The translations under genes and the position numbers were made by a program. Shown piece by piece: positions 21,607-59,636 of a stretch of 64,000 bases of DNA. How positions within the stretch are numbered: position 1 is the first letter of the stretch; every line of letters starts with the position of its first letter. The notes under the pieces were generated by a model. That model was given only the letters and a program-made list of their open reading frames with translations. It was not told where the DNA came from and made no database searches. The DNA is from a virus. Lineage: Duplodnaviria > Caudoviricetes. The stretch lies in the IMG/VR virus record IMGVR_UViG_3300021375_000006. One strand, written 5' to 3'.

Positions 21607-21619
21607 ACAAACAATAACT

Positions 21620-45594: not shown

Positions 45595-45600
45595 ATTGTT

Positions 45601-45789
45601 TTAAATTCGATCTAGTTCTGCAATTAATTCATCGATAGAACCAACTGCTAATTCACATTCATGGGCTTCGCTGCCTCCGTCCTCAATTTCGTCCTGTGCT
45701 AGGAAGAATAGGTCTCTAACTTCGTCGTCAAGTTGTGGGTATTGTTTTGAAACCTCTTCTGCGTACTTTTTAAGATCTGATAATGTCAT
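45601..45789 (-). CDS. Small acidic hypothetical protein (62 aa)
   Basis: ORF track; promoter motif at 45795-45821. Confidence 0.65.
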   Translation of the reverse strand: MTLSDLKKYAEEVSKQYPQLDDEVRDLFFLAQDEIEDGGSEAHECELAVGSIDELIAELDRI

Positions 45790-45794
45790 ATAGT

Positions 45795-45821
45795 TTATAG
45801 TTTAAAGTTATTAATTGTTTA
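45795..45821 (-). promoter_or_regulatory. TAAAC-N17-TATAA promoter motif
   Basis: 17-nt spacer. Confidence 0.55.
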
Positions 45822-46067
45822 TGGTCTGAATCTGCCTAGGTGGCTATTGAATTCATCTTCTTCAATTTTGCGCTGGCGCTCTGTTGCTTCGCGTGCGTCT
45901 GCCCAATCATCTGCAAATTTGCACATAATCTTCTTCTCTTCGTCTAGGAATGTTCTTGCAATAGCAATCGCGTATTCCATGCCTTGCCAAACCTCCTTTG
46001 GACTACTTTCTAATTCTTCTTGCATTGCCTCTATTAACAATGCGACTGGTGTTTGTCTTTTACTCAT
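45819..46067 (-). CDS. Hypothetical protein (82 aa)
   Basis: ORF track. Confidence 0.6.
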   Translation of the reverse strand: MSKRQTPVALLIEAMQEELESSPKEVWQGMEYAIAIARTFLDEEKKIMCKFADDWADAREATERQRKIEEDEFNSHLGRFRP

Positions 46068-46581
46068 AAGCTGCGGGTGATGTTAGACCAGAATATGCAC
46101 AGTATTCTTTCTCGCTGTCATAAACTAGTGTTGCGTTAAACGTTTCGATTAATTTCTTTTCATTAAATCCTGCGTGACCGTGGATTGATTTGCCTCCAGT
46201 CGCTTTAGCTTCTAGAACTGGCATGATAACATCAGTCGGTACTTCGTAGATTTTCTTGATAGTAACTCCATCTCTGACGGCAAAGTACATATTATTCGTT
46301 TGCGCGTACTTTTCGATTTTGTTCTTTGATAGCCAATGGAACTGGAAAGTACCAGATTTACCCTTGTTTCTCATGTTGATTGCCTTATACTCTGTGGGCG
46401 TTTTAGTGGCATCTAAGGCATCGCCACCCTGAGTATTATTACCATACTCGTGACCTAAATGATTAGCCATAAACATCTCTACGAACCTCTCATTATAGAA
46501 TATGTTGTCAAGTCCTAGTTCGTCTTTGGCGATCTGTTCTGCCTCTTGCAGAAGTGATTGTATTTGTTGTATTGCTTTCAT
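46060..46581 (-). CDS. PvuII-like PD-(D/E)xK restriction endonuclease (173 aa)
   Basis: LGLDNIF...GGDALD...EYKAIN...FHW...KYAQ...FAVRDG.TIKKIY parallels PvuII (GINDIF...GNDAVD...ELKSIN...KYRQ...FAIYRGIAIEAIY), recalled from memory. Confidence 0.7.
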   Translation of the reverse strand: MKAIQQIQSLLQEAEQIAKDELGLDNIFYNERFVEMFMANHLGHEYGNNTQGGDALDATKTPTEYKAINMRNKGKSGTFQFHWLSKNKIEKYAQTNNMYFAVRDGVTIKKIYEVPTDVIMPVLEAKATGGKSIHGHAGFNEKKLIETFNATLVYDSEKEYCAYSGLTSPAAYE

Positions 46582-46611
46582 ATTAATATAATTACATGCT
46601 TTTTTTAAAAC

Positions 46612-46824
46612 TTACAAACTATGGCCAATTTTTTCATGTAATCTTTTCATGTGCTTACATGGAGAGTATGACCTGAAACTTCTTGCCGGACATTCACAGT
46701 CCACAATTTTGTAATCCGTCACTTTGACGTTATAGTATTTGAGCTTTCTAGTCTTCTTGTCTCTGGAACCCATTTCTCTGTAGTACCACGATGTACCTTT
46801 TGGATGTGTGTAGAAATCTGTCAT
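46612..46824 (-). CDS. SWIM-type zinc-finger protein (70 aa)
   Basis: CECPARSFRSYSPCKH (CxC-xn-CxH). Confidence 0.7.
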   Translation of the reverse strand: MTDFYTHPKGTSWYYREMGSRDKKTRKLKYYNVKVTDYKIVDCECPARSFRSYSPCKHMKRLHEKIGHSL

Positions 46825-47126
46825 TACGCTTCTACTCTATCGTGAACAGGAATCGGCGCATCGCCAGGGAATCTTGAATCTGAAGTGTAAACGAAGTTAC
46901 CACCCATCATAGAATGAGTATTAGATTTTACAAGTGATGCAGGTTTTGCATACCAAGCAGGTTTACCAAACAAATTTCTTTTGATTAAGACGAGTGAATC
47001 GTTTGGAATAGAATCCAAATCGTCAGTATCAAAATAAAGATCGAAGTTATCACCTACTGAAGTCAAACCATTGTTAGTACAGTCTCCGAGTGGGTGTCTA
47101 AATGGGAAAGTTAAAATTTTGTTCAT
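46824..47126 (-). CDS. Hypothetical early protein (100 aa)
   Basis: ORF directly downstream of the promoter repeat. Confidence 0.7.
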   Translation of the reverse strand: MNKILTFPFRHPLGDCTNNGLTSVGDNFDLYFDTDDLDSIPNDSLVLIKRNLFGKPAWYAKPASLVKSNTHSMMGGNFVYTSDSRFPGDAPIPVHDRVEA

Positions 47127-47136
47127 TATTGTATCG

Positions 47137-47200
47137 TTTTAATTACAGTACTAATATACGAAAAAAAAGTGACATAAAAAAATTCTATGGCACTTTTTTT
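47137..47200 (-). promoter_or_regulatory. 64-bp early-promoter repeat, copy 2
   Basis: Same TATGTCA-N11-TATATTAGTACTGTAATTAAAA core. Confidence 0.75.
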
Positions 47201-47219
47201 GTTAAAGTTATTAACAATT

Positions 47220-47678
47220 TTAGAAATCACCAGGAGCAACTTGCATACAAGTTAATCCATTATCTCTCCACATATCGACTACTTTCTGTCTGTCATCAAA
47301 GACACAGATAATATCGTTCTTGTCAGTGAAAAGTTGGTCAAACCACATTTGCTTAAGCTTGTCATCAGGCATGAACATGAAGTCCTTACTTGTAGGTCTC
47401 ATCTTCAAAATGTCAAATGGCACATCAAACTTTTTCAACCAAGCTCTAGTAGCGTCTTTGGTAGCTTTACTTCTACCAGACAAGATGATAATTCTATGGC
47501 CAGCAGCTTTAAGAGTCTGAGCCATTGCAATTACACCATGGTTAGGTTGGTCAAGATCGATGTTCTTAGGATCGAAGAATACATCCCAGTCCATCTTGCC
47601 GTTTGGCTTCTTAGAAATCTGTCTCCTATCATCGATAAGAGCAAGAGTTCCGTCAAGATCAAAAATTACGTTTTTCAT
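47220..47678 (-). CDS. HAD phosphatase, T4 PNK (PseT) 3'-phosphatase-like
   Basis: IFDLDGTL, LSGR, MRP, FDDRQKVVDMWR...CMQVAPGDF. Confidence 0.85.
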   Translation of the reverse strand: MKNVIFDLDGTLALIDDRRQISKKPNGKMDWDVFFDPKNIDLDQPNHGVIAMAQTLKAAGHRIIILSGRSKATKDATRAWLKKFDVPFDILKMRPTSKDFMFMPDDKLKQMWFDQLFTDKNDIICVFDDRQKVVDMWRDNGLTCMQVAPGDF

Positions 47679-47687
47679 TTACTTTAG

Positions 47688-47751
47688 TTTTAATTACAGT
47701 ACTAATATACGAAAAATATCTGACATAAAAAAATCTAGAGGCAATTATTTT
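47688..47751 (-). promoter_or_regulatory. 64-bp early-promoter repeat, copy 3
   Basis: 62/64 identical to copy 1. Confidence 0.75.
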
Positions 47752-47978
47752 GCCATATAATCTCTAATAGTTTGCATGTGTGTTTCTGCATTTGCCATTT
47801 CTTCTAGTGTAAATACATCTAGGTCTTGAAACCACAAGCCATCACCACATTCCACAAAGATAACATTATCATCTAACTTCATGACATCATTAACTCGATA
47901 TACAGTCATATCTTCTACTCTAACTACATGAGTAGTTGAAGCCAACCTCTCTATTCTTTCTTCAATCGACAAACTCAT
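47745..47978 (-). CDS. Hypothetical protein (77 aa)
   Basis: ORF track. Confidence 0.6.
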   Translation of the reverse strand: MSLSIEERIERLASTTHVVRVEDMTVYRVNDVMKLDDNVIFVECGDGLWFQDLDVFTLEEMANAETHMQTIRDYMAK

Positions 47979-48210
47979 TAAAAGATCTGTTTTTTAATTT
48001 AAGCATTTTTTTAAACTCTGCTAATTGTTTCTCACAGAATTGAGCTTGTCTTTCAGTCTTTTCAAAATGAGATAAGTATTTCTCTAAGTTAGCTACATAG
48101 TTATATGCACCTTCAATTTGTGTTGTATTGTGACATGAACTAATTACCTTTGAAGTCTTTCTCATTAGATCAAAGATGTAGTCCATATTAGTTTTAAAAT
48201 TCCAATCCAT
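47962..48210 (-). CDS. Hypothetical protein (82 aa)
   Basis: ORF track. Confidence 0.6.
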   Translation of the reverse strand: MDWNFKTNMDYIFDLMRKTSKVISSCHNTTQIEGAYNYVANLEKYLSHFEKTERQAQFCEKQLAEFKKMLKLKNRSFNEFVD

Positions 48211-48211
48211 T

Positions 48212-48673
48212 TTAGGGTTGTAAATAATTTAATATACTTTTCCAATCTGGAAATGAATCACTTCCAAACTGAATTAACTCACCACTGAATTCACCAGCTC
48301 CATTCTTAGTTCTATCATCGATGAGGTAGTCGCCCATGTTTAGGTTTTTATTATGAGACAGAATAAGTCTCTTGTAAGCTCCTTCACCTAGGTACTTGTC
48401 AACCCACAATCTTTTGTGCATCCATGCCGATGGGTTTTCCCATGGCGCAGTACTTAAGATGTAGCAATCATATTTGTCTGAGTTGACAAACTTATTGAAT
48501 GCATCTATTGCACCTTTCATTGGAGGTGGGTCTAAAAAGAGTGCAGGCATCTGATCTACTAGATCTAATTCCTCTGCTCTCTTAATTGCTTCTGGAGGGT
48601 ACTCGGCTATTTTAGCTGCTAGATCTACTAGCACACCATCCATATCAAAATATATTATTTTCTTATTCTCCAT
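48212..48673 (-). CDS. 5'(3')-deoxyribonucleotidase (NT5C family HAD)
   Basis: YFDMDGVLVD, LSTAPW, LSHNKNL, YLIDDR. Confidence 0.85.
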   Translation of the reverse strand: MENKKIIYFDMDGVLVDLAAKIAEYPPEAIKRAEELDLVDQMPALFLDPPPMKGAIDAFNKFVNSDKYDCYILSTAPWENPSAWMHKRLWVDKYLGEGAYKRLILSHNKNLNMGDYLIDDRTKNGAGEFSGELIQFGSDSFPDWKSILNYLQP

Positions 48674-48872
48674 CCTTTGACTTTATAGTAGCTTTTGTAC
48701 CTGGAAATAAAATGTAATACAAGAGCATTAAGCCAAACATTTGCCATGGACTAACAGGATTAGCCCAAGTAACTGCTTCAGTTAAAACAACATTCCATAA
48801 GTAGGTTGCTGTTAAAACAGCCAAAGGTACTGCTAAAAAAATAATTAGTAGTGGTCCGATTAAATTCTTCAT
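48663..48872 (-). CDS. Small membrane protein (69 aa)
   Basis: Two hydrophobic helices; downstream of the promoter repeat. Confidence 0.65.
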   Translation of the reverse strand: MKNLIGPLLIIFLAVPLAVLTATYLWNVVLTEAVTWANPVSPWQMFGLMLLYYILFPGTKATIKSKDGE

Positions 48873-48880
48873 ATATTTAG

Positions 48881-48931
48881 TTTTAATTAGAGTACTAATA
48901 TAATCAATTTTTCTGACATAGAAAAATTATT
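48881..48931 (-). promoter_or_regulatory. Early-promoter repeat, diverged copy 4
   Basis: TATGTCAGAAAAATTGATTATATTAGTACTCTAATTAAAA. Confidence 0.7.
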
Positions 48932-49058
48932 TAGTACTTTTTTTGTTTGTTTTCTTTTTCTTTAGGTTTTTTACAACTTCTTCTAACTTACTATGACCAA
49001 TGCCTTGTTTTGCCATTGCCCTTAATGTTGCTATTGATAGTTGTTTAGGTTTTTCCAT
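48927..49058 (-). CDS. Small basic protein (43 aa; start revised to MEKPKQ)
   Basis: In-frame ATG at 49058 avoids a long overlap with the upstream gene. Confidence 0.45.
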   Translation of the reverse strand: MEKPKQLSIATLRAMAKQGIGHSKLEEVVKNLKKKKTNKKSTK

Positions 49059-49302
49059 ATTTGTTAATAACCTCGTATTTCTTAATGTTATATTTCTTTT
49101 GCCATGTTTCAATAAAACTTTCACCAATCCCCATTTCTACAATGTCATATTTGTGGTCAACCACCGGTTTTGTAGCTCTTCCATTATTTAAAATATCCAC
49201 ATGAATATCAGTTACAATCATATAGTGTTTATTTCCTGTTTTGGTTTTTCTATAAACCACTACATTTGTAGGTTTTCCTTTTTCTTTCCAGGGTAATTTC
49301 AT
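49045..49302 (-). CDS. Hypothetical protein (85 aa; start revised to MKLPWK)
   Basis: ATG 49302 overlaps the upstream TGA (ATGA). Confidence 0.6.
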   Translation of the reverse strand: MKLPWKEKGKPTNVVVYRKTKTGNKHYMIVTDIHVDILNNGRATKPVVDHKYDIVEMGIGESFIETWQKKYNIKKYEVINKYGKT

Positions 49303-49643
49303 TTCCAAAATAATTGAATACTGATAATAGCCACGGCTAGAATCACACATATTGTAGTCTTCATGTTTATACCTTCACCCATTAATAACCATGTTAAAAA
49401 TGCAAAGGACGTTATACCCATTGAAAAGCCAATGAATCGACCTGGCCAAAGTAGACCACCATAATGTGCAGCAATTAGAGCGGTAGCTTTAATAAACATA
49501 TATGAAATCATAGTACCACCTACAATTGACATTATCCATGGGTGGTCTTTAGCCCATTTACTTAAAAATTGTCCGTTGGTTTGAAACCAAATTAGTATCT
49601 GCCCTGCTAAAAATAAGAGCATGCCTGCAATAAGTCCTCTCAA
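49299..49643 (-). CDS. Small multi-pass membrane protein (DMT/SMR-like size)
   Basis: About four hydrophobic helices; TTG start overlapping the rnhB stop. Confidence 0.6.
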   Translation of the reverse strand: MRGLIAGMLLFLAGQILIWFQTNGQFLSKWAKDHPWIMSIVGGTMISYMFIKATALIAAHYGGLLWPGRFIGFSMGITSFAFLTWLLMGEGINMKTTICVILAVAIISIQLFWK

Positions 49644-50266
49644 AATAATTGATTTGTGGTAGTTAATAAATGTGAGCAAAAAGATTCTCTATGGTGGTCA
49701 GTTAATCCAGACTCTTTAATAGCCGTAATATGTTGTTTAGTTCCATATCCTTTATTAGAACCCCATCCATATACATTACCACCTTCAATAGACTTCATAT
49801 ATGCATCTCTTTCAGTCTTTGCTAAAATACTTGCAGCTGCAATACTTGTATAGATATTATCTCCGCCTACTACAGTTTCAAAAGGTTTACCATCGAAGCC
49901 GTGGAATTGATCGCCATCTACTAGAATAAAATTGAATGGGTGTTTCTGGCAAGTTTCTGCTAGAGCCCTTCTCATGCCTTCTAATGTAGCTTTTAAAATG
50001 TTAGTGTTTTCTATGTCTTCCACTCCAACATGTTGAATGGAGTACGCCAACGCGTTATCTAAAACCATTTGTCTAGCCTCTGCACGCTGACCTTCATTTA
50101 GAAGTTTAGAATCTTTAATAAGTTCATGTTGGAATCCGAATGGCATAATACATGCCGCTACAGTTACTGGCCCGGCGAGTGCGCCTCTACCAGCTTCATC
50201 TACACCAACCTCTATAATATTGGGGTCGTTTAAATGACTGCTCTTTAAAATAATGCGTTTAGACAT
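49640..50266 (-). CDS. rnhB: Ribonuclease HII
   Basis: GVDEAGRG.LAGPV, DSK, ILVDG, SIAAASILAK.ERD, NKGYGT. Confidence 0.92.
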   Translation of the reverse strand: MSKRIILKSSHLNDPNIIEVGVDEAGRGALAGPVTVAACIMPFGFQHELIKDSKLLNEGQRAEARQMVLDNALAYSIQHVGVEDIENTNILKATLEGMRRALAETCQKHPFNFILVDGDQFHGFDGKPFETVVGGDNIYTSIAAASILAKTERDAYMKSIEGGNVYGWGSNKGYGTKQHITAIKESGLTDHHRESFCSHLLTTTNQLF

Positions 50267-50286
50267 AGATATAACTTGTTTAGTAG

Positions 50287-50313
50287 TTATATCCTAAAAT
50301 AGCTTATTGTTTC
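50287..50313 (-). promoter_or_regulatory. GAAAC-N17-TATAA promoter motif (rnhB)
   Basis: 17-nt spacer. Confidence 0.65.
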
Positions 50314-50776
50314 TAATTTTACTACTAGGAGATAAATCAGCTGGTCGATCCCACCTCATTTGAACTTCCTTCTGATAGAAGCCACATTTCTCATAAAAAC
50401 CTATATTATCTTCTGAACAATTAAGAACTACTTTATAGCAACCCCTTTCGACCGCTAAGTCTTTTAGTCTTTCAATTAATAGTTTACCTAGACCTCTACT
50501 TCCAGCGTGCTTAGAAACCGCAACATCTTCTATTTGAGCAACTCTGTTACCACCTCTAATTAATTTATTGATAGTAATTAATGAAGCAACGCCTACCACA
50601 TAACCACCTTCTTCTGCAACATAGTAGTGAATATTAGGATTATCTAAAATATTCCACCACTGTCTATTAGATGGATTGGTCTTACCATTAAAGGCTTCTG
50701 TATAAATATCACAGATAGGTTCTAAATCCTCGTAAGTTGCTTTACGAATCTTTACTTTTTGTTCTGAATTTTCCAT
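50294..50776 (-). CDS. GNAT acetyltransferase, glucosamine-6-phosphate N-acetyltransferase (GNA1)-like
   Basis: KLIRGG.RVAQIEDVAV...GLGKLLI...GCYKVVLNCSEDNIGFYEKCGF. Confidence 0.75.
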   Translation of the reverse strand: MENSEQKVKIRKATYEDLEPICDIYTEAFNGKTNPSNRQWWNILDNPNIHYYVAEEGGYVVGVASLITINKLIRGGNRVAQIEDVAVSKHAGSRGLGKLLIERLKDLAVERGCYKVVLNCSEDNIGFYEKCGFYQKEVQMRWDRPADLSPSSKIRNNKLF

Positions 50777-51432
50777 TTGTCGTATCGTGTCACGACCTCT
50801 TGAAGTATTTTAGCCCTAACAATATCTGACTCAGTAAAGATATGAGTACTAATGCCTCTTATACCTTCTAATAATTCTATAAAACCAGGAAGACTAACTT
50901 GCGAAGCTGCAATATCTGCTTGGCTTACATCCCCTGTAACTACCACTTTACTTGACTTACCCATTCTTGTTACAAATAACATCAACTGTTTATATGTTGC
51001 GTTCTGTGCTTCATCAAGAATCATTAGGGCATCATCAAAAGTATCTCCTCTCATATAGGCTAGTGGTTCGAATCGAATTACTTTTTTATCAAATAAGGTT
51101 TTAGTTAGCTCAACACCGATTATCTTTTCTATATTAGATTTGTAAGATCTCATATAAGGATCTACTTTATCATTAATATCTCCTGGTAAGTGACCCAACT
51201 TTTCACCCGCTTCTTGGATCGGCTTACATAATATAATTTCTTTAATCTTCTTTTCTTGCAACATTTCTAGCGCAGTATAACACGCTGTAAATGTTTTCGA
51301 AGTTCCAGCTGGTCCGTAACAAAACGTAATATCATTTTTATCAATAGTATCTACGTAATTTCTTTGGTTAGGTTTTAATTGAATTCTTTTCAATCCTGCT
51401 GCAATCGATGCTGCTCTAGAGGTTCTTGCCAT
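50752..51432 (-). CDS. phoH: PhoH-like ATPase
   Basis: GPAGTSKT, LGHLPG, PLAYMRG.TF, ILDEAQN, TGDVSQ. Confidence 0.9.
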   Translation of the reverse strand: MARTSRAASIAAGLKRIQLKPNQRNYVDTIDKNDITFCYGPAGTSKTFTACYTALEMLQEKKIKEIILCKPIQEAGEKLGHLPGDINDKVDPYMRSYKSNIEKIIGVELTKTLFDKKVIRFEPLAYMRGDTFDDALMILDEAQNATYKQLMLFVTRMGKSSKVVVTGDVSQADIAASQVSLPGFIELLEGIRGISTHIFTESDIVRAKILQEVVTRYDKWKIQNKK

Positions 51433-51445
51433 AGTTTTAATTTAT

Positions 51446-51742
51446 TTAATCACCGGCCATTATGACCAGTTCACGTAGTTTCATTAACTTATTACATTTT
51501 TCATACTCTTCTAGAGATTCAAAATATTTTATCATTAAGTCAATAAACTTAGACCTTTGTGAAATTCCATGTGGAATTTCTATTAAACGGTCCTCATCTT
51601 TAAATGCGACGAAGCGATTTACGGTCTTTGTAAAATTCCTAGTTATCTGATAATAACTCGCCCTCATTATACTGTCTTTATCGGAGTTTGATACAAATCC
51701 GCTCATCTCAATTACTATAATTTTTTGGTTGTTGCTAACCAT
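51446..51742 (-). CDS. Small protein with C-terminal UVR-like motif (EEYEKC..L)
   Basis: YFESLEEYEKCNKLMKL. Confidence 0.6.
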   Translation of the reverse strand: MVSNNQKIIVIEMSGFVSNSDKDSIMRASYYQITRNFTKTVNRFVAFKDEDRLIEIPHGISQRSKFIDLMIKYFESLEEYEKCNKLMKLRELVIMAGD

Positions 51743-51825
51743 GTTATATATTTTAGTTACTCTCTATCTAAAGCTAAATAAAGAGTTAAAATTATTAGTA
51801 TATTATTCTAATACTAGGTCAAAAA

Positions 51826-52026
51826 TTAAAGTTGTTGATCTTCTCTTGTTTTTAGCTGCTGTATGTATTTAGCTTTTTGCTTTTGCAGTCTCTTCTTTTG
51901 AGAAGGTTTTGTGAATTGTTTGCGATCTCTTAACGCACGAAGTTGTTTTGTTCTAATTACTTTAGATTTAAGTTGTTTTAGAGCTTTTTCAATATTGGTT
52001 TTCTTATCTAGTTTTATTATTAACAT
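51826..52026 (-). CDS. rpsU: 30S ribosomal protein S21 (Bacteroidota type)
   Basis: MLII...NIEKALK.LK.K...LR.LRDRKQFTKPS.KKR...KAKYIQ. Confidence 0.9.
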   Translation of the reverse strand: MLIIKLDKKTNIEKALKQLKSKVIRTKQLRALRDRKQFTKPSQKKRLQKQKAKYIQQLKTREDQQL

Positions 52027-52295
52027 AAATTTTGATTTACTTGTTGCTGCATTTCATATAATTTAGCACACTTTTCGAAATCTTCACGGTCTTCATAATA
52101 TTTTAACATATTGCCTAATAGCTCAATTTTTCGATCAGCTGGCATGTCTGATAATATAACGTATGCTGGATGTTCCATCATCGCTTGATATAATGCAGTG
52201 AAAAAAGTAGACTTATTACTAACCATTAGGCCTTCGATAATAATATCCCACCTAGAGTTCATTCTTCGTCTATTTTTTCTAAAAAATTTATCCAT
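52020..52295 (-). CDS. Small protein with C-terminal UVR-like motif
   Basis: YYEDREDFEKCAKLYEM. Confidence 0.6.
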   Translation of the reverse strand: MDKFFRKNRRRMNSRWDIIIEGLMVSNKSTFFTALYQAMMEHPAYVILSDMPADRKIELLGNMLKYYEDREDFEKCAKLYEMQQQVNQNLC

Positions 52296-52344
52296 GATTT
52301 TATTATGTACTTTCTTTATATATTCTAGCTTTATTATTTTTAAT

Positions 52345-52926
52345 TCAAAATATCTTTATGGCTTTTTTATATAAATGTCCGTTTGCCACAGCTTCATAGT
52401 TTTTAGTATACGGAAACACCACCTCTCTAGACCACATTCCATCTTTCCATTTACCATCTTCACTTAAATGTGTACTATCACCATTTTTAATAAAAGTATT
52501 TGAAAAATGATATATTGTTTTTTTAGTAGACGCCCATTCCGGTGGATTAGGATTTTCATTATGCATTTTATAGTAGCCTTGGATTTGTGGGTTTTGTTGC
52601 CATTCATATAAATCAAATAATTCATCTAAATAAACTACATCTGGGTATATCCCATGCTTAAAACCTAAATGTGTAATCCAAGTCATAACAGATCTAATAT
52701 TACTAGGAATATAGGGTCCTGTAATTACAAAATCAGCATCCCAAGAAATCCAATCTTCTAAAATACTACCAGTTAAATAAAGCTCATGTTCACTAAATAA
52801 ATATGGTTTACTTTTAATCTCTTTTAAAAAATCTTGAAACTTTTCATTTTCAAAAGAGTCAATACCATACCAGACGTCTGATTTATAGCCGCCATATTCA
52901 ATAAGAGAATTATCCTTTGGAGTCAT
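52345..52926 (-). CDS. Pol-beta-superfamily nucleotidyltransferase-like protein
   Basis: LYLTGSILEDWISWDADFVI (hGS...DxD). Confidence 0.55.
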   Translation of the reverse strand: MTPKDNSLIEYGGYKSDVWYGIDSFENEKFQDFLKEIKSKPYLFSEHELYLTGSILEDWISWDADFVITGPYIPSNIRSVMTWITHLGFKHGIYPDVVYLDELFDLYEWQQNPQIQGYYKMHNENPNPPEWASTKKTIYHFSNTFIKNGDSTHLSEDGKWKDGMWSREVVFPYTKNYEAVANGHLYKKAIKIF

Positions 52927-53710
52927 TTATTTTCTTAATATATTCAATTTGTGTATCATTTAACTCAGGGAAGCTAGCATTTATTTTACAAAGAAGACTA
53001 CCTCTAATCTGAGTATCGTAATTAGGCCATCCCTTTTCACGAACCCTTAATACTTTACCAGGTGTTGTTGCCTGTGGTACATGGATTGTAATCGGACCAT
53101 CTAATGTAGATATTGTAATTTTAGTACCTGCCATAATTTCATACCATGGTAGACTTACTTCTACCCATATATCATTATTTTGGTCTATAATAAATTCTGA
53201 ACTCATTCTTACATGAATGTTCACTAATAAGTCTCCAGGCGGTAGTGTGCTATTAAATGGATGTGCTTGCCCTTTACCTGCTAATTTAAACCTTTGTCCA
53301 GTTTTAACACCTGGTTTTAAATTAATAGTAGACTCATATCCATTTACTTGAAATGTTTTACTACACCCTTGAAATGCTTCTTCAAATGAAATGTGCATAT
53401 CTACTTTAATATCAGCACCTCTTGTTTGTTGGCGCCTTTGGCCACCAAAGAATTGATTGAATAGATCTCCGAAGTTACCATCCATTCCACCCATATTACC
53501 AAAGCTGGCAAATGGATTATCTTGCATAACATCATATTGCTGGCGTTTTTGTTCATCGCCAACTACAGCATACGCGTCTGCAATTTCTTTAAACTTATTT
53601 TCATCACCACCTCGATCTGGGTGATGCTGCATACTAAGTTTCCTATAAGCTTTCTTAATTTCTGACTGAGTTGCTGTTTTGTCTACGCCTAAAGTTGCAT
53701 AGTGACTCAC
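52910..53710 (-). CDS. dnaJ: DnaJ (type II, CbpA-like) co-chaperone
   Basis: J-domain with HPD, G/F-rich linker, DnaJ_C, no zinc finger. Confidence 0.92.
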   Translation of the reverse strand: MSHYATLGVDKTATQSEIKKAYRKLSMQHHPDRGGDENKFKEIADAYAVVGDEQKRQQYDVMQDNPFASFGNMGGMDGNFGDLFNQFFGGQRRQQTRGADIKVDMHISFEEAFQGCSKTFQVNGYESTINLKPGVKTGQRFKLAGKGQAHPFNSTLPPGDLLVNIHVRMSSEFIIDQNNDIWVEVSLPWYEIMAGTKITISTLDGPITIHVPQATTPGKVLRVREKGWPNYDTQIRGSLLCKINASFPELNDTQIEYIKKINDSKG

Positions 53711-53868
53711 TCGCTTTCAGATTTAGATTGTCTTATTTCACGAACCTGTAAGGACTCTAGTTTAGCTTTTCTTTTCTCAGCTACAGTCTCACGTTTGTTC
53801 TTTGCTTCCATTGCGTCGGCAATTCTCTTAAGTTGTTTTGCTATTTCGCTAGCTGTCTTTTCGTCCAT
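53707..53868 (-). CDS. Small coiled-coil protein (53 aa, MDEKTASEIAKQLKRIADAME...)
   Basis: Hand-translated; its TGA overlaps the dnaJ GTG start. Confidence 0.6.
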   Translation of the reverse strand: MDEKTASEIAKQLKRIADAMEAKNKRETVAEKRKAKLESLQVREIRQSKSESE

Positions 53869-54103
53869 ATCTATTCTTAATTAAATCTGACTTGCCATTT
53901 TGAAAATCTTGATAAGGTAATGACTTATCCTTCTCTTCCTTATGAGGGCCATTAACCATTATAGTATCTTTATATGGATTTGTTTCAACGCCCTGATCTT
54001 CTAACCAGGTCATCATATCCTTTACAGAACCTTTAAATTGTCTAATTCTTTCTAGCTCAGGGTGGTCTGTAGCGAAGTCTTCAAATAGTTTAATATGCTT
54101 CAT
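53849..54103 (-). CDS. Putative head-internal protein, MKHIKLFEDF leader (84 aa)
   Basis: Leader motif; coupled to the upstream gene. Confidence 0.55.
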   Translation of the reverse strand: MKHIKLFEDFATDHPELERIRQFKGSVKDMMTWLEDQGVETNPYKDTIMVNGPHKEEKDKSLPYQDFQNGKSDLIKNRYGRKDS

Positions 54104-54546
54104 TAGTCTAGGCTTCCGTATTTACCTGAGGACATATCTTTACCAAATTGGTCAATCGCCTTAGTTCTATAGTCAATATATGCTGGATCTTCGTGGTGAT
54201 TTTTACCACCAGCCCCAAAGTAAGAGTTAAATCTATATGAAGTAATTGCGTCACCCTTTTCTTTAAAAGCCTTTTCCATATCTTTAACGATCTTAATAAT
54301 CTTTCTCTTCTTCGATGAGTTAATAGGTCCTTTAAACTTCTCACTATCTGGCGCAAACGAAGAAGTACTACTAGTTACTTTAACGTATTCTAGAGTTTCT
54401 GGCGCATTTTCAATTAGCTTAATAAAGTCTTTTAGGTTATCTGCACTACCAGCCCAAGAAGACTCTATCTTCTTACCATTAATAGTAGAGTAGGCCATTT
54501 CGACCTTCTCGTTTAAAAATCTGTGATATGGTTGGATATGTTTCAT
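54103..54546 (-). CDS. Putative head-internal protein, MKHIQPYHRFLNE leader (147 aa)
   Basis: Leader motif plus GATATATAA 4 nt upstream. Confidence 0.55.
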   Translation of the reverse strand: MKHIQPYHRFLNEKVEMAYSTINGKKIESSWAGSADNLKDFIKLIENAPETLEYVKVTSSTSSFAPDSEKFKGPINSSKKRKIIKIVKDMEKAFKEKGDAITSYRFNSYFGAGGKNHHEDPAYIDYRTKAIDQFGKDMSSGKYGSLD

Positions 54547-54549
54547 AGG

Positions 54550-54558
54550 TTATATATC
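54550..54558 (-). promoter_or_regulatory. Late-type motif GATATATAA
   Basis: Between the sRNA terminator and the MKHIQP gene. Confidence 0.55.
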
Positions 54559-54561
54559 AAT

Positions 54562-54598
54562 AAAAAAACCCGCGGAAATACTAGATTTCCTACGGGTT
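54562..54598 (-). terminator. Rho-independent terminator
   Basis: AACCCG..GGAAAT/ATTTCC.CGGGTT stem plus T7. Confidence 0.75.
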
Positions 54599-54636
54599 CA
54601 TTTCGGGGGCCCGCACTTCCGTTATGGATGTGCGTT
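54562..54636 (-). ncRNA. Candidate small structured non-coding RNA (~75 nt)
   Basis: Own GATATATAA motif at 54640-54648, GC-rich hairpin 54612-54634, terminator hairpin plus U7 at 54562-54598, no usable ORF. Confidence 0.5.
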
Positions 54637-54639
54637 AAG

Positions 54640-54648
54640 TTATATATC
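54640..54648 (-). promoter_or_regulatory. Late-type motif GATATATAA upstream of the candidate sRNA
   Basis: Followed by a non-coding structured segment. Confidence 0.5.
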
Positions 54649-54944
54649 TAACAAACTCGCTCTAAAATACGTTCTACCTTTTCGAGTTCGGTTTTTAGTA
54701 CTCCACACTTCTCATATTGCTCTAGGTCAATAAAGTGTTTCGTCATATAAACAATAGTTTCTTTCAATTGAATTACCTCTTCTGTTTCCATGTGGCGTAT
54801 GTGCCAATCAGAGAGACCATTCTCTTTAATGTTATTGTAGTTCTTCTCGATGGCTTCCTCAATCATAGCGTTCTTATACGCCTCCATCTTCTGTTCGAAT
54901 TCTGGATCGTTTAGGTAGTCATCAATGTTAAAGTCATCATTCAT
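54648..54944 (-). CDS. Small protein with C-terminal UVR-like motif (start revised to MNDDF)
   Basis: HFIDLEQYEKCGVLKTEL. Confidence 0.6.
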   Translation of the reverse strand: MNDDFNIDDYLNDPEFEQKMEAYKNAMIEEAIEKNYNNIKENGLSDWHIRHMETEEVIQLKETIVYMTKHFIDLEQYEKCGVLKTELEKVERILERVC

Positions 54945-54945
54945 A

Positions 54946-55077
54946 TTAAGCAAATGTAATATTATCAGATTTGAATGCCATTTTGTATTCGTGAACTAAG
55001 TATTCAGCTTCGTCCACTGTTTCGGCCGTGTCAATTACCTCTCGGCCATAGGTTGAATCGTAGAAAATTTCGTACAT
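54946..55077 (-). CDS. Small early protein (43 aa, MYEIFYDSTYGREVIDTAET...)
   Basis: Hand-translated; first gene after the promoter repeat at 55091-55154. Confidence 0.65.
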   Translation of the reverse strand: MYEIFYDSTYGREVIDTAETVDEAEYLVHEYKMAFKSDNITFA

Positions 55078-55090
55078 AATATTTATTGAT

Positions 55091-55154
55091 TTTTAATTAC
55101 AGTACTAATATACGAAAAATAATTGACATAAAAAAATTCTAAGGCAATTATTTT
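55091..55154 (-). promoter_or_regulatory. 64-bp early-promoter repeat, copy 5
   Basis: Core identical to copy 1 from TTTTTTTATGTCA onward. Confidence 0.75.
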
Positions 55155-55169
55155 GAAGAAATCTCTATC

Positions 55170-55541
55170 TTATTTGATAGAGATTTTCTTCTTATTATCA
55201 ACTGAATCAAACTTAAGAGTTAAGATACCATTTGTCATAGTAGCGTTAATTGAATCCATATCTACTGTGCTAGGTAATCTAAACTTCTTAGTAAATGATT
55301 GTGCAAATCCTTCGTCCTTCTTTTCAGAAGAGATCGTTAAGATCTGACCTTCAACTTCAATGTTAATATCCTTCTTGCTAAATCCTGGCAAGCTAACATC
55401 TAGTTTGTTATCACCCACTTTATATTCTGGGCCTAGGATATTTAATGTGTCCCACTCTCTTCTTGGGATTACGTTAAAGAATGAATCGAATGCTCCGTCG
55501 AAAGAGTCTTGTGCTAATTTTGATAAGTTTGTTAAATACAT
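55170..55541 (-). CDS. Small heat-shock protein (Hsp20/alpha-crystallin)
   Basis: VSLPGFSKKDINIEV...ILTIS...FTKKFRLP...INATMTNGILTL. Confidence 0.92.
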   Translation of the reverse strand: MYLTNLSKLAQDSFDGAFDSFFNVIPRREWDTLNILGPEYKVGDNKLDVSLPGFSKKDINIEVEGQILTISSEKKDEGFAQSFTKKFRLPSTVDMDSINATMTNGILTLKFDSVDNKKKISIK

Positions 55542-55617
55542 GTTTTAAAATTTATTTTGTTTCTTGTGCAATATCGCACAGTAACTATAGTGAAAAAAGT
55601 GTACCAAAGCTATTTTT

Positions 55618-55632
55618 GTGACGTATTGTCAC
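55618..55632. promoter_or_regulatory. Palindromic site GTGAC-N5-GTCAC upstream of hsp20
   Basis: Perfect 5-bp arms in the intergenic gap, ~10 nt from a TTGGTACAC element. Confidence 0.35.
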
Positions 55633-55645
55633 CTTTTCTAAAATT

Positions 55646-56377
55646 TTATTGACAAATTGGCATACCAGACATCTTTAAGATGACATTTGCTGTAGCCTTA
55701 ATATCTTTTTCGCAATAAGTTTTAATCTCTTCATGTCTATCATTCCAGTAATATTCTGAAACTTCTGACCCTGACATTGCGTCTTTTGGTGAGGGAATAC
55801 CTAGGACTTCTGAGATGAGACCTAGTTTAGCTGAGTCCCAACCTCCGAATTGCCAAGTCTCTTTAGTATCGAGTAGACAGTTCTCCCAAGGTTTTTGTTT
55901 GTGTAAGTGAAAGTGTTTAGGAACAGAGACTCCATTTATTAGAGACCTCTTAATAATATATGGCATATCGAAACCTTTGATAAAGTGGCCAACCCACTTC
56001 ATCGCTGGGTACTTCTGCATGATCTTAGAGCTCATATCCTGAAAATCCTTTAGTATCTTATGTTCATCGGTACCGCTAAATGAGACAGCCTTAAAACCAT
56101 TAGGAAAGCCTGTTTCATCAAATTGAATCTGGCCAACTGAGATACAAACAATTCTACCCCACTCTGGATTTAGTCCAGCCATTCTAGGCCACATCTTATG
56201 TGGATCTGAGTAGTCTGCTAATTCAACTGGATTCTTTTGTACCAGTTGCATGGTCTTTAAATCCCAGTATTGTTCTAACTCTGGGTTCTCGTCAATTACT
56301 TCTTGAAACGTCTCTTTCTGAGTTGCTGTTTCAATGTCGATGAAAATCATCTGCTTTAATTCGTCTAATGTGTACAT
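55646..56377 (-). CDS. DEDDy 3'-5' exonuclease (PolB-exo-like standalone)
   Basis: FIDIET, GHFIKGFDMPYI, YCEKDI. Confidence 0.85.
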   Translation of the reverse strand: MYTLDELKQMIFIDIETATQKETFQEVIDENPELEQYWDLKTMQLVQKNPVELADYSDPHKMWPRMAGLNPEWGRIVCISVGQIQFDETGFPNGFKAVSFSGTDEHKILKDFQDMSSKIMQKYPAMKWVGHFIKGFDMPYIIKRSLINGVSVPKHFHLHKQKPWENCLLDTKETWQFGGWDSAKLGLISEVLGIPSPKDAMSGSEVSEYYWNDRHEEIKTYCEKDIKATANVILKMSGMPICQ

Positions 56378-56400
56378 ATCTTTAATTTCCTTTAAATACT

Positions 56401-56428
56401 AAAAAACATCTAGCGTTAACTAGATGTT
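56401..56428 (-). terminator. Rho-independent terminator
   Basis: AACATCTAG/CTAGATGTT stem, 6-nt loop, T-run. Confidence 0.65.
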
Positions 56429-56430
56429 CT

Positions 56431-56457
56431 TTATACGTTCGAAGTCTTATTTGTTTC
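56431..56457 (-). promoter_or_regulatory. GAAAC-N17-TATAA promoter motif (exonuclease)
   Basis: 17-nt spacer. Confidence 0.65.
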
Positions 56458-56551
56458 TTAAGAACTTCCAGATTAGTCCTATTAAACTATCAGCTTTAAA
56501 TTTCTTGCCCTTGTAGTTTAATAAGTAATCTTTTCTTTCATTGTTTTCCAT
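56447..56551 (-). CDS. Small protein (34 aa, MENNERKDYLLNYKGKKF...)
   Basis: Hand-translated; fills the gap, A-rich leader. Confidence 0.5.
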   Translation of the reverse strand: MENNERKDYLLNYKGKKFKADSLIGLIWKFLRNK

Positions 56552-56561
56552 AATTGTTGTT

Positions 56562-56801
56562 TTAAGTCATCCAACCGCCAGATTCTTCCCAGTCTTTATG
56601 AGAAGATAGCATTGAATATGCCTCAAAAGAAAGTGTTACTTCAACATAACCCCCGGTTATAGATTGGGGACACTTAGACTCGCTTAGGTACCAGTTAGGT
56701 GCATCTTTAATCCTACCATTCAAAAAATCAAATAGTGGATCTATGTGCATGTGGTGTACCCATATATTGATATGCATACATGTCATGTTTGCTTTACCCA
56801 T
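56562..56801 (-). CDS. Hypothetical protein (79 aa)
   Basis: ORF track. Confidence 0.55.
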   Translation of the reverse strand: MGKANMTCMHINIWVHHMHIDPLFDFLNGRIKDAPNWYLSESKCPQSITGGYVEVTLSFEAYSMLSSHKDWEESGGWMT

Positions 56802-57726
56802 TTTCTACGCTAAATCTTTTTTTGTCAAAGTTAATTGTACTTTTAATATCTTTCTTTTGGTACATATCTATCTGTTCGATTTCAGATGATTGTAATTTTT
56901 TACCGTAATGCTCTTGATAGACTTTTTTATAGATAAGTGCCATAACACCATAGAGAGGAGCAAACTCTGAAGACATTTCCACTACCCATGGTTTCCCATC
57001 TGTATCAACCATTAGGTCTATTGAGTATATGTCTAAACCTTCATGTGCCTTATTCATTTCCTGAAATACTTCATTCCATTCCTTTGGCATTTTACTAAGA
57101 TCTTTTAACACATACTTAAAGAATAGCTTGTCTTCTTTTTTCTTTGTCATCTCTTTGGTCTCCTTGTTACCATGTACTCTTTGTACCCACATAACAGGTT
57201 CACCTCTCCACATCATTATTCTGTGTTCTTCATCGATGTCTATCTTCTCGCTGAAGACTTCAAAGTCAGAAAGGTCCATATCATTAGCTTTTCTAAGGGT
57301 ATCTATTTTAATAATACCTTGGCCCGAATATCTGTTATCGGGTTTCGCTATGATAGGGAACTTTAACTGATCTAAATCTTTTGCATCTGAAACTGTCTTT
57401 GGCACATGTTTAGAATCTTTGTGAGTCTCATGCCATTTTACTTTCGATGCGATTTCCATCTTCTTCTCCTTAGGATTATAGATTAGGTCTTTAGGAGTAC
57501 CCGCATCTAATAGTCTTTTAGTGTGGATATTACAAAAGTTAATCACAGGCATATCAGACTTAAATGGCTGATCGCCCTTCGTAAAGAGTTGCATAAAATT
57601 TCTAGTGTGTGCAGATTTATCTGTTACATACTTAAAGTCTGTAAGCTCTGTAGATACACACATAACAACTTTGTGCAGTTCTCCATTTTTCTCGTTAAGA
57701 AATGTTTGGAAATCTTTAATTTTCAT
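56794..57726 (-). CDS. ATP-grasp ligase (RimK-like) with head-targeting-type leader
   Basis: FPIIAKP...SGQGI, EKID...EHRI, SIDLM...VVEMSS; N-terminal MKIKDFQTFLNE; late motif upstream. Confidence 0.75.
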   Translation of the reverse strand: MKIKDFQTFLNEKNGELHKVVMCVSTELTDFKYVTDKSAHTRNFMQLFTKGDQPFKSDMPVINFCNIHTKRLLDAGTPKDLIYNPKEKKMEIASKVKWHETHKDSKHVPKTVSDAKDLDQLKFPIIAKPDNRYSGQGIIKIDTLRKANDMDLSDFEVFSEKIDIDEEHRIMMWRGEPVMWVQRVHGNKETKEMTKKKEDKLFFKYVLKDLSKMPKEWNEVFQEMNKAHEGLDIYSIDLMVDTDGKPWVVEMSSEFAPLYGVMALIYKKVYQEHYGKKLQSSEIEQIDMYQKKDIKSTINFDKKRFSVENG

Positions 57727-57729
57727 AGA

Positions 57730-57738
57730 TTATATATC
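57730..57738 (-). promoter_or_regulatory. Late-type motif GATATATAA
   Basis: 3 nt before the ATP-grasp ATG. Confidence 0.55.
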
Positions 57739-57745
57739 TATGATT

Positions 57746-58174
57746 TTAAGACGGGAATACTTCAATCGTTCTTTCTTCTCTAACTAAATCTGCCCACTTG
57801 CCTTCGTATCTTGTACCTTTGACAATATGGTTATCAACCCAGTGATAGTTACCACCTCTTGGTTTACCCATTAGTAGACCATGGTATTTGAATCCATGTT
57901 TGTTTAACCAAGCTTCTGTAATATCTCTTACATCTTCAGTTCTTGAAGTAAAGAAAGTAATTACATGGCCTTCGTCAAACCATTTATTTAAAGTTTCTTT
58001 TGCACCTGCATAGGGTAAGACTACTGACATTCTCTCTGGCTCTTCGTTTGGTACATCATCTGTAATTGTGCCGTCAATGTCAATTAGATAGTTCTTACAC
58101 CCATCGTTTAAAACAGGAGAGACTAGGTGTCCGTCATCTCCTATTGTTTCGTTAAATTTAATTTCTCTTTTCAT
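57746..58174 (-). CDS. HAD-superfamily phosphatase (Bacteroidota so-called phosphoheptose isomerase type)
   Basis: LIDIDGTI, FFTSR, LLMGKPRGG...WVDN. Confidence 0.75.
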   Translation of the reverse strand: MKREIKFNETIGDDGHLVSPVLNDGCKNYLIDIDGTITDDVPNEEPERMSVVLPYAGAKETLNKWFDEGHVITFFTSRTEDVRDITEAWLNKHGFKYHGLLMGKPRGGNYHWVDNHIVKGTRYEGKWADLVREERTIEVFPS

Positions 58175-58187
58175 ACTTTATTGTAAA

Positions 58188-59615
58188 TTAAGGTTCTTCG
58201 TGGTTTCTAATAAATGATACAATAATATATCTCTTACCACCTGTAATTGGCCTCGCGCCATGTCTATGTGTAATCATTCCAGGGTGAAGTACTGCTGTAC
58301 CTATTTGCTCTGGATTGGATAATTTTTGATACTGAGGGAACCAAGTTCCACCGCCACTAAATTCATCATTTAATTTAATAACCATCGTTAGGTGGCTTCT
58401 ATCATGGTGTAGAGATAGGTGTGATTGTCTAGTCGTTGTATACCTAGCCATGAAGTTTTCATTTGAGAATGCGTCCCATTGTTTACCTTCTAGGTTCCAT
58501 TGGTGAATTGCAAGAGGCCTAACTACTTCATGTAATACTTTATTGTAAATTTCATCTAGGCCAATATCTTGTAGTAAGACATCATTAGTTGGATAGTGTT
58601 CGTGTCTGTCAATAGTCCACTTATCTTTAGCCTCTGCTAGAGCAATTGCTTCTCTACAGAATCTAGGAGTAAATAACGGGAATTCATATACGTTATCTCC
58701 TCTATCTGAAACCATTAAGTCATACTCTCCCTTTGATACTGATAGATTAATATACTTCTCTTTCCATTCATCCCAATTAGATATATCTAATATTTCAAAA
58801 TACTCTGATGTATCAATATCAAATTCTGGTCTTACATATTCTGTTTGAGTTTGTTCAGGTTCCTGGTTAATTATTTCACGTTGGTTTGGACTACCCACTT
58901 CTGGTTCTATTGTAGAACCTCCAAGTTTACCACCTCTATTCTGTACTATAAAATTTGGATCGCGTGTTGCTAATATAGTTAATGATTTTGGAAATAGTTC
59001 TTGAATATCATGTCTTCTATGCGGATAACCTAGTGCACTTAAATACTCATCTACAGGAATCACGTTTTCTTTTAATCCACCTGATAATAATAGTTTTGCT
59101 ACATTAGGGTTTTTAATAATATATGCATGTGCATTATACCAGTGTCTAGGATAAAGCCAAGTTTCATTAATAACCTCTTCTTCAACTTCTTTTTCAATTA
59201 TATCTCTACCTAATAAGGCAACATCCCAATTAGTATCTACTGGAGGCTCTGCCAACATTGACATTGAATTACCTTCATTAAAGAAATCTTCTTCTAATAT
59301 TAGTATTGGACCTAGCCCATCGAATACTGCAGCTTCCCATACTTTTCTATGTGAAATTGCACAACCAACCTCTCCTGGTAAAACAGACCTTCTCCACCAA
59401 TCATTCCAAGAATAAGGTGACTCAGGGCCCACATCCCATTTATCATAAACGGTATAACCCTCTTTTATATCACCTTCTCTACCATCAAATGCAGAAATAA
59501 TTTCATACGGGGTATTTTCATAAAACGCACATGATTGTAACTTTTCTTCTATTGTTTGCTGAAGACTCTCTCTATTTGAGTCTAAAGCTATAACATAAAT
59601 TTTATTAATTCTCAT
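58188..59615 (-). CDS. GT25 glycosyltransferase fused to PLOD-type 2OG-Fe(II) lysyl-hydroxylase-like domain
   Basis: GEVGCAISH, LILEED, IPVDEYL; NFMARY...HHD...GGGTWF...HPG.ITH.H...RYIIVSF. Confidence 0.85.
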   Translation of the reverse strand: MRINKIYVIALDSNRESLQQTIEEKLQSCAFYENTPYEIISAFDGREGDIKEGYTVYDKWDVGPESPYSWNDWWRRSVLPGEVGCAISHRKVWEAAVFDGLGPILILEEDFFNEGNSMSMLAEPPVDTNWDVALLGRDIIEKEVEEEVINETWLYPRHWYNAHAYIIKNPNVAKLLLSGGLKENVIPVDEYLSALGYPHRRHDIQELFPKSLTILATRDPNFIVQNRGGKLGGSTIEPEVGSPNQREIINQEPEQTQTEYVRPEFDIDTSEYFEILDISNWDEWKEKYINLSVSKGEYDLMVSDRGDNVYEFPLFTPRFCREAIALAEAKDKWTIDRHEHYPTNDVLLQDIGLDEIYNKVLHEVVRPLAIHQWNLEGKQWDAFSNENFMARYTTTRQSHLSLHHDRSHLTMVIKLNDEFSGGGTWFPQYQKLSNPEQIGTAVLHPGMITHRHGARPITGGKRYIIVSFIRNHEEP

Positions 59616-59636
59616 TATTAGTTATGAATTTTTATA

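Follow-up and report, generated by a model that had tools for sequence, protein, structure and literature searches.

Why would a phage of Bacteroidota carry a gene for ribosomal protein bS21 that keeps the residue by which this protein holds the anti-Shine-Dalgarno (anti-SD) sequence out of reach, with no Shine-Dalgarno (SD) sequence in front of the gene itself? The question is raised by a short gene in a stretch of 64,000 nucleotides of viral DNA (Caudoviricetes; IMG/VR record IMGVR_UViG_3300021375_000006), which is called the window below. bS21 is, to our knowledge, the ribosomal protein that phages carry most often. In the Bacteroidia, bS21 decides whether the ribosome reads SD sequences, and its own gene, rpsU, is the one SD-dependent gene of the host. 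Phage copies that have no SD leader and yet keep Tyr54 lead to a prediction, namely that bS21-free ribosomes would be filled and the translation of host rpsU depressed.

The background comes mainly from Flavobacterium johnsoniae. In its ribosome, bS21 stacks its Tyr54 on A1534 at the point from which the 3' tail of 16S rRNA turns to the platform, and Ile55 adds van der Waals contacts; the anti-SD is sequestered by Tyr54 together with bS18 and bS6 (Jha 2021, PMC7797042). The rpsU gene is autoregulated via an extended SD (McNutt 2023, PMC9976891). With Y54A ribosomes, the translation of rpsU goes up about 3-fold, and after the Y54A replacement or the loss of the C-terminus, SD-led reporters and rpsU are translated about 3- to 5-fold more (PMC9976891). 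A 13-bp SD-ASD helix on the rpsU mRNA sterically shuts out bS21 (Arpin 2026, PMC13000457). When rpsU was placed behind the SD-less tuf leader in strain FN236, the occupancy of ribosomes by bS21 rose from 0.80 in the wild type to 1.0 (Naeem 2026, PMC13000453), and the loss of autoregulation had an almost nil laboratory fitness or growth cost (PMC13000453). A counter-defence role for the autoregulation is offered by McNutt et al. only as speculation (PMC9976891). Phages of Bacteroidetes that encode bS21 have been described; their proteins keep Tyr54 in 54/61 cases and have another aromatic residue in the others, and their N-terminal helix diverges from that of bacterial bS21 at the same positions that were found independently here (Chen 2022, ISME Commun, PMC9723584). 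The initial annotation of the window had named the sequestration of the anti-SD (PMC7797042), the autoregulation of host rpsU through its own strong SD (PMC9976891) and the existence of such phages (PMC9723584), and on all three points it agrees with these papers.

The answer that we hold to be somewhat better than an even chance is that the window encodes a functional phage bS21, which is made outside the SD/anti-SD feedback of the host, fills the site on the 30S subunit and keeps the anti-SD sequestered. The positions of the gene, its neighbours and the sequence elements found in the window are collected in Table 1.

Table 1. Positions of the bS21 gene, its neighbours and sequence elements in the window.
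Feature	Positions	Strand	Remarks
bS21 coding sequence	51826..52026	(-)	66 aa; Bacteroidia type; phage-specific helix alpha1
Tyr54 codon (51865-51867, TAC on the minus strand) and Ile55 codon (51862-51864)	51862..51867	(-)	Counterparts of the two F. johnsoniae bS21 residues that touch the 3' tail of 16S rRNA
Translation initiation region of bS21	52027..52048	(-)	No SD, unstructured; is the 3' coding end of up91
ATGTTAA overlap	52020..52026	(-)	bS21 start codon and up91 stop codon share 7 nt
up91, 91-aa ORF	52020..52295	(-)	Virus-only family; C-terminal E-D-F/Y-E-K-C motif; always directly 5' of bS21 in the phage group
ATATATAA box	52316..52323	(-)	21 nt 5' of the up91 ATG; candidate promoter element for the up91-bS21 pair
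83-nt spacer 3' of bS21	51743..51825	(-)	A/U-rich hairpin and ATATATAA box at 51744-51751
down98, 98-aa ORF	51446..51742	(-)	Very conserved; C-terminal Y-E-K-C motif common to up91
PhoH-like ATPase	50752..51432	(-)	Pfam PF02562, E=1.2e-64; synteny
DnaJ-like co-chaperone	52910..53710	(-)	Pfam DnaJ and DnaJ_C; synteny
Hsp20 small heat-shock protein	55170..55541	(-)	Pfam PF00011, E=1.2e-14; synteny
TAGTACTGTAATTAAAAC copy	21590-21607	(+)	
TAGTACTGTAATTAAAAC copies	47136-47153, 47687-47704, 48880-48897, 55090-55107	(-)	

The identity of the gene is clear. Its ATG begins an ORF of 66 codons, and the start is unambiguous since an in-frame TGA lies 10 codons upstream with no ATG, GTG or TTG in between. 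The protein matches the Pfam profile Ribosomal_S21 (PF01165) with E=1.4e-11 and 44.3 bits, above the curated cutoff of 27, and its residues 4-54 are aligned on profile positions 2-52 of 55. It is also matched by PHROG 21469, "ribosomal protein S21". When all solved structures were searched, the top match was bS21 of the F. johnsoniae 70S ribosome (7jil_z, E=3.9e-10), followed by the bS21 chain 9i5v_9 (E=1.3e-9). The remaining matches, all labelled S21, were at least 7 orders of magnitude weaker than these two, and the nearest PDB match from outside the Bacteroidota was weaker by 7 orders of magnitude. Residues 1-60 align with residues 1-60 of 7jil_z with zero gaps, so that residue numbers carry over from F. 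johnsoniae to the phage protein. The phage K-A-K-Y-I-Q sits on K-A-A-Y-I-Q, with Tyr54 on Tyr54 and Ile55 on Ile55. The Pfam match and the gapless 7JIL alignment bear out what the initial annotation had claimed, a Bacteroidota-type S21 with Tyr exactly at position 54, and in the alignment with the F. johnsoniae protein this Tyr54 falls on the residue that contacts the anti-SD there. The net charge of residues 55-66, as read from the sequence, is 0. A weakly basic C-terminal part of this kind is a Bacteroidia-type trait, and the complete signature of the type (Tyr54, Ile55 and the weakly basic C-terminal part) is present.

For comparison, 72 viral and 48 cellular loci with related genes were fetched, which gave 25 phage and 39 cellular sequences that were non-redundant by protein. 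Tyr54 occurs in 39/39 of the cellular and 24/25 of the viral proteins, so its presence is due to homology and not to chance. The dN/dS ratio between the phage bS21 and the relative L001 is 0.047, with synonymous sites saturated against remoter relatives, and this value indicates strong purifying selection on the phage gene.

The second half of the question concerns the start region. The initial annotation had seen no SD before the ATG, and this holds: the 14 nt are as it quoted them, and the 22 nt 5' of the ATG give an anti-SD duplex energy of 0.0 kcal/mol. The local fold of the initiation region is -5 kcal/mol (z = +0.59). The extended SD that is the hallmark of autoregulated rpsU (about 8-13 nt, located 5-10 nt 5' of the start) is absent from the window gene. 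This absence is not a peculiarity of bS21. A strong anti-SD duplex (dG <= -6) is found at only 4/78 gene starts in the window, compared with 8.8% of random positions. SD sequences are thus missing phage-wide, at a level below background, and the lack of one at bS21 is the default of the genome rather than a gene-specific trait. The leaders of the window genes contain about 50% A and about 10% G, and initiation is of the Bacteroidia style.

The comparison with cellular genes is more telling. An anti-SD duplex of -9 kcal/mol or stronger precedes 26/39 cellular Bacteroidota rpsU genes and 0/25 phage bS21 genes. The 26 SD-bearing cellular genes have an SD of the AAAGGAGGTG or the AAAGAGGTG type, with dG from -9.6 to -16.4 kcal/mol, and those among them that carry a family label all belong to the Flavobacteriaceae. 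The other 13/39 have no SD; they include genes of the MED-G17 type, Crocinitomicaceae, Saprospiraceae, Lewinellaceae and Chitinophagaceae-like genes. Further Flavobacteriales clades without an rpsU SD are listed in the literature (PMC13000453). The contrast between host and phage in the leaders of bS21 is therefore real and general, though the hosts are not uniform. Just one phage gene of the 25 reaches -6 kcal/mol, that of L003 (AGAGGT, -7.0 kcal/mol), and its AGAGGT falls within the closing codons of the ORF before it (K-E-V-K-stop) and was read as a by-product of coding rather than as a real SD. In the library searched, no paper was found that notes the absence of an SD on phage bS21 genes, and Chen 2022 (PMC9723584) does not set phage bS21 genes against those of hosts in their SD content. 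In a second group of viral bS21 genes (L009-L012, L025-L027, L052, L053, L056 and L058), TATATTTG and GATATTTG occur within about 25 nt of the ATG. Both match the Bacteroidota promoter element TAnnTTTG. With a promoter element so close to the ATG, these genes would have a very short, SD-less leader.

An SD-less gene is not for this reason an unregulated one, and here the initial annotation, which had spoken of an "unregulated" supply of S21, has to be qualified. The ORF of up91 runs through to the bS21 ATG, so the leader of bS21 is itself coding sequence. The up91 stop codon (TAA) overlaps the bS21 start in 7/8 related phage loci. The overlap has the form ATGTTAA in the window and in L001, L002, L004, L005, L006 and L008; it is 14 nt long in L014, and in L003 there is a 1-nt gap instead. 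A conserved start/stop overlap of this sort is what would be expected of a translationally coupled pair. Within this conserved operon-like module, the translation of bS21 is probably coupled to that of up91 rather than simply left without control.

The module extends further. The genes follow one another in the order Hsp20, several small ORFs, DnaJ, up91, bS21, down98, PhoH, GNAT acetyltransferase and RNase HII, and bS21, placed between DnaJ and PhoH, has the same orientation as the genes around it. The same order is kept in 8 related marine viral loci whose bS21 proteins are 59-86% identical to that of the window. Across these loci down98 is more conserved than bS21, with 70-94% identity; it belongs to over 280 database clusters and to no Pfam family. 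The proteins up91 and down98 resemble each other (46% identity over 24 aa, E=3e-6), and the C-terminal motif E-E-Y-E-K-C-N-K-L of down98 is found again in up91 as well as in a further ORF (54648-54953). A UVR domain in these three Y-E-K-C-motif proteins received no supporting Pfam match at E <= 1; a weak lead from the Atlas is an adjoining viral cluster with PF02151 in 17% of its members. The predicted complex of up91 and bS21 scored 0.01 against a mark of 0.32, which is evidence neither way. A 193-aa ORF at 52345-52926 (-), between DnaJ and up91, has no Pfam match and no counterpart in the 8 syntenic loci, and in relatives the up91 start is overlapped by the DnaJ stop. A RimK/bS6 assignment for the ATP-grasp-like protein at 56794-57726 (-) was not adopted; Pfam gives it no support, the matches being generic and sub-threshold (YheC/D, R2K and TTL types).

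The phage protein is not a recent copy of a host protein, since viral and cellular bS21 are separate on the tree. One branch of the maximum-likelihood tree parts them with a support of 81/83, and 26 viral sequences are grouped with 2 cellular ones of the MED-G17 type with a support of 97/93, on an alignment of only 64 columns that limits the resolution. The window bS21 is placed on the viral side. Both phage and cellular proteins have Ala15, Lys20, Lys22, Lys40, Ser42, Arg46 and Ala52 without exception, and they differ systematically at positions 5, 10, 18, 19, 21, 23, 24 and 28. Position 18 is Gln in 22/25 viral proteins and Arg or Lys in 37/39 cellular ones; position 19 is Leu in 23/25 and Phe or Tyr in 37/39; position 21 is Ser, Asn or Gly in 24/25 and Arg or Lys in 36/39. 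Similarly, viral Val at position 23 (25/25) stands against cellular Phe or Tyr (38/39), Ile at position 24 (23/25) against Asp or Glu (31/39), and Gln at position 28 (25/25) against Thr, Val, Met or Ile (38/39). The viral loci were retrieved by peptide patterns from helix alpha1 of the query, which exaggerates this signature. The window protein groups with the phage clade by its place on the tree and by Ser21, Val23, Ile24 and Gln28, with the same bias from query-derived patterns in the retrieval. The phage-specific residues of the helix suggest that a ribosome carrying the phage protein would differ from that of the host.

Among cellular lineages, the phage clade has its closest relative in bS21 of marine Bacteroidota of the MED-G17 type (L098 at 1501-1689, and L101, both on contigs of cellular MAGs). 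These proteins have Gln18 and Leu19 in common with the phage proteins, and no SD stands upstream of their genes, which have cellular neighbours (DUF5723, M1 peptidase). The bS21 of L014 (5001-5192) has Phe at the position of Tyr54, in a locus with the same DnaJ-up-bS21-down-PhoH module.

The window is assigned to a large marine myovirus, probably of more than 200 kb, with Flavobacteria-like hosts. The window encodes a baseplate wedge protein, a virion structural protein, a helicase and an endonuclease, which identify it as phage DNA; its GC content is 34.8%, and it has no tRNA genes. The baseplate and helicase proteins are closest to those of the 462-kb uncultured phage LR756500 (41-44% identity). 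At 27-31% identity follow other huge uncultured phages, the Prevotella Lak phages, the Tenacibaculum jumbo myoviruses PTm1, PTm5 and pT24, Chryseobacterium phage MA9V-2 and Sphingomonas phage PAU. The relatives of the phage infect mostly Bacteroidota. A protein neighbouring bS21 has identical copies on contigs of up to 254 kb, and the DNA of the window occurs in seawater and marine metagenomes. A megablast of window positions 45000-60000 against the phage collection gave no match. An origin from a pelagiphage similar to HTVC008M, which PhoH, DnaJ and the low GC content had brought to mind, was rejected; the best matches of bS21 are Bacteroidota, and the structural and replication genes match jumbo phages of Bacteroidota.

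How such a protein could act on its host can be laid out in steps. The phage bS21 would be translated by ordinary, replete ribosomes with an occluded anti-SD, probably via coupling to up91, and its synthesis would escape the SD/anti-SD feedback that limits the bS21 of the host. It would take the single site on the 30S subunit, including that of the roughly one fifth of ribosomes that are bS21-free in the model host. The anti-SD would stay sequestered by the phage protein, a state that would suit the SD-less, A-rich leaders of the phage. By mass action there would be fewer bS21-free ribosomes, the only efficient translators of SD-led rpsU, and in hosts with an SD-led rpsU the translation of host bS21 would be lowered. 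The differences in alpha1 may add a phage-specific property, and the substituted ribosome would not be identical to that of the host. The initial annotation had proposed this consequence, namely ribosomes kept in the anti-SD-occluded state and a repressed host rpsU. It appears mechanistically plausible in view of the rise in occupancy in FN236 (PMC13000453) and the exclusion of bS21 by the SD-ASD helix (PMC13000457). The occupancy step has a direct precedent in strain FN236, in which the consequences for the cell are mild. The benefit to the phage is uncertain, given that F. johnsoniae loses rpsU autoregulation almost without cost. Overall, the interpretation in the initial annotation is partly supported.

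The explanations that compete with this one differ in what they take the protein to be for. According to Chen et al. 2022, whose proposal we regard as possible but short of probable for the window gene, the phage bS21 replaces that of the host and its N-terminal helix biases the ribosome toward phage mRNAs; Tyr54 would then only dock the protein, and the SD-less leader would have no regulatory meaning. Altered mRNA selection fits the phage protein because helix alpha1 is no plain host copy. The systematic differences between phage and cellular proteins, such as those at positions 23 and 28, argue for it, as do the single branch between viral and cellular sequences (81/83) and the same divergent positions in Chen 2022 (PMC9723584). 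However, no leader feature was found that separates phage from host, both being A-rich and SD-less; the SD-less initiation complex shows no mRNA density near bS21 upstream of position -3, and the alpha1 signature is the one inflated by the query-derived retrieval patterns. Selective translation is compatible with the explanation that we favour and does not exclude it. It is doubtful that the gene serves for maintenance alone, by replenishing a weakly bound, late-assembling protein after host shutdown while mRNA choice and host rpsU remain unaffected. The protein does retain every invariant bS21 position, bS21 is sub-stoichiometric on the ribosomes of wild-type F. johnsoniae (0.80, PMC13000453), and the gene lies among chaperone and stress genes (Hsp20, DnaJ, PhoH), not takeover genes. 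Such a supply would leave the conserved, phage-specific alpha1 unexplained, and this helix argues for a role beyond mere provision of the protein; the separation of viral and cellular bS21 on the tree also speaks against recent host copies.

The proposed repression of rpsU by the phage protein would depend in addition on the host. The chain of steps fails if the host rpsU has no SD, and the nearest cellular bS21 lineage, the MED-G17 type, is SD-less. In a host from such a lineage of Flavobacteriales, the phage would meet no SD feedback that it could evade or exploit against rpsU, which would make the contrast in leaders irrelevant to this phage. The two nearest cellular relatives, L098 and L101, with their SD-less genes flanked by cellular genes, point in this direction, as do the several Flavobacteriales clades without an rpsU SD in the literature (PMC13000453). 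We find such a host questionable, however, because the extended SD is present in 26/39 cellular genes, the family-labelled ones of which are all Flavobacteriaceae, and because the nearest cultured relatives of the phage infect Tenacibaculum, where rpsU has a dG of about -16. A role away from the ribosome is highly improbable; the small basic protein would then be an RNA chaperone, for instance, or would work together with the flanking Y-E-K-C-motif proteins. The tight and conserved position of bS21 between the two small proteins up91 and down98 would agree with such a role, but all ribosome-contact signatures are retained and dN/dS is very low. Moreover, incorporation into ribosomes has been reported for another phage bS21, that of Pelagibacter phage HTVC008M (Mizuno et al. 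2019, cited in PMC9976891). That protein is marine and phage-borne like the one studied here, but it comes from another host phylum, is of another bS21 type and is not among the tblastn matches of the window bS21 in the phage collection.

A bolder form of the favoured explanation, in which the module takes an active part, seems unlikely to us. The chaperone module (Hsp20, DnaJ, the two Y-E-K-C-motif proteins and PhoH) would load the phage bS21 on all host ribosomes, lock the anti-SD, shut off the synthesis of host bS21 via the SD/anti-SD feedback and so convert the ribosome pool progressively. If true, marine jumbo phages of Flavobacteria would have hijacked an autoregulatory loop of the ribosome. 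The marine module, with up91 overlapping bS21 and with Hsp20, DnaJ and PhoH, at any rate names candidate helper proteins.

The window gene is a marine addition to the known class of bS21 genes in phages of Bacteroidota, in a new conserved gene context. It resembles the bS21 genes of the freshwater Bacteroidetes myoviruses (PMC9723584) in being of the Bacteroidia type, in coming from large phages and in the aromatic residue 54. It also shares with the phages of Chen 2022 the divergence of alpha1 at about positions 21, 23, 24/25 and 28, a viral cluster of its own whose closest relatives among bacteria are Flavobacteriia, and the presence of Hsp20 nearby, which Chen et al. list as frequent in published phage genomes. 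[quoted passage not shown] Compared with the rpsU/bS21 circuit of F. johnsoniae, residues 1-60 are colinear, and Tyr54, Ile55, Ala15, Lys22, Lys40, Ser42, Arg46, Lys51 and Ala52 are common to both proteins. The phage gene lacks the extended SD, which is the defining cis element of that circuit; it has Gln18, Leu19, Ser21, Val23, Ile24 and Gln28 in alpha1; and it overlaps another ORF, whereas rpsU stands behind its own leader. Strain FN236 (PMC13000453) is alike in having an SD-less bS21 gene, an engineered one, in a Bacteroidia cell, but it makes the host protein from the host locus, shows almost no growth phenotype and is silent on any benefit in infection. The conservation of Tyr54 has already been published (Chen 2022, PMC9723584). 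The bypass of the rpsU feedback is apparently unpublished and is a reasonable corollary of recent work. The increment is modest, since Tyr54 is published, the lack of an SD is the default and the idea follows from recent papers.

How the pair is transcribed can be addressed from repeated boxes and from RNA libraries. All 12 copies of ATATATAA in the window occupy spacers immediately 5' of genes, virion genes included, and have the orientation of the coding strand (positions 17061, 20597, 20979, 30620, 37419, 39213, 42656, 51744, 52316, 54550, 54640 and 57730, all minus); their number is at chance level, and the bias in strand and position is complete. Of the longer form GATATATAA there are 7 copies where 2.2 are expected, again without exception in the coding orientation. 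ATATATAA is a possible promoter element for up91-bS21; several copies lie 0-3 nt from an annotated ATG, and a simple promoter reading leaves these unexplained. A scan of 51000-55200 for the sigma-70 consensus gave fewer promoter-like sites than shuffled sequences and no coding-strand terminator; such a scan is uninformative for a Bacteroidota phage. The hairpin in the spacer 3' of bS21 has a fold of -15.6 kcal/mol (z = -3.0). RNA-library contigs from three studies cover the bS21 gene. One of 545 nt, with zero mismatch, runs from the 3' part of up91 across bS21 into the start of down98, and another covers 51822-52032. These contigs, which give no strand, ends or level and leave DNA carry-over uncontrolled, are a weak indication that bS21 is transcribed in nature.

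Two further observations were made in the window. A second motif, TAGTACTGTAATTAAAAC, of 18 nt, has 5 copies against 0.2 expected and always lies 5' of genes. At its copy at about 55090-55138 there is a peak in the depth of RNA contigs, with many contigs diverging on both sides, as would be seen with a repeated promoter or leader element. At the other end of the window, an ORF of at least 1849 codons at 1-5547 (-) runs off the window start, and its 5' neighbour encodes a 1225-aa protein of PHROG 29329.
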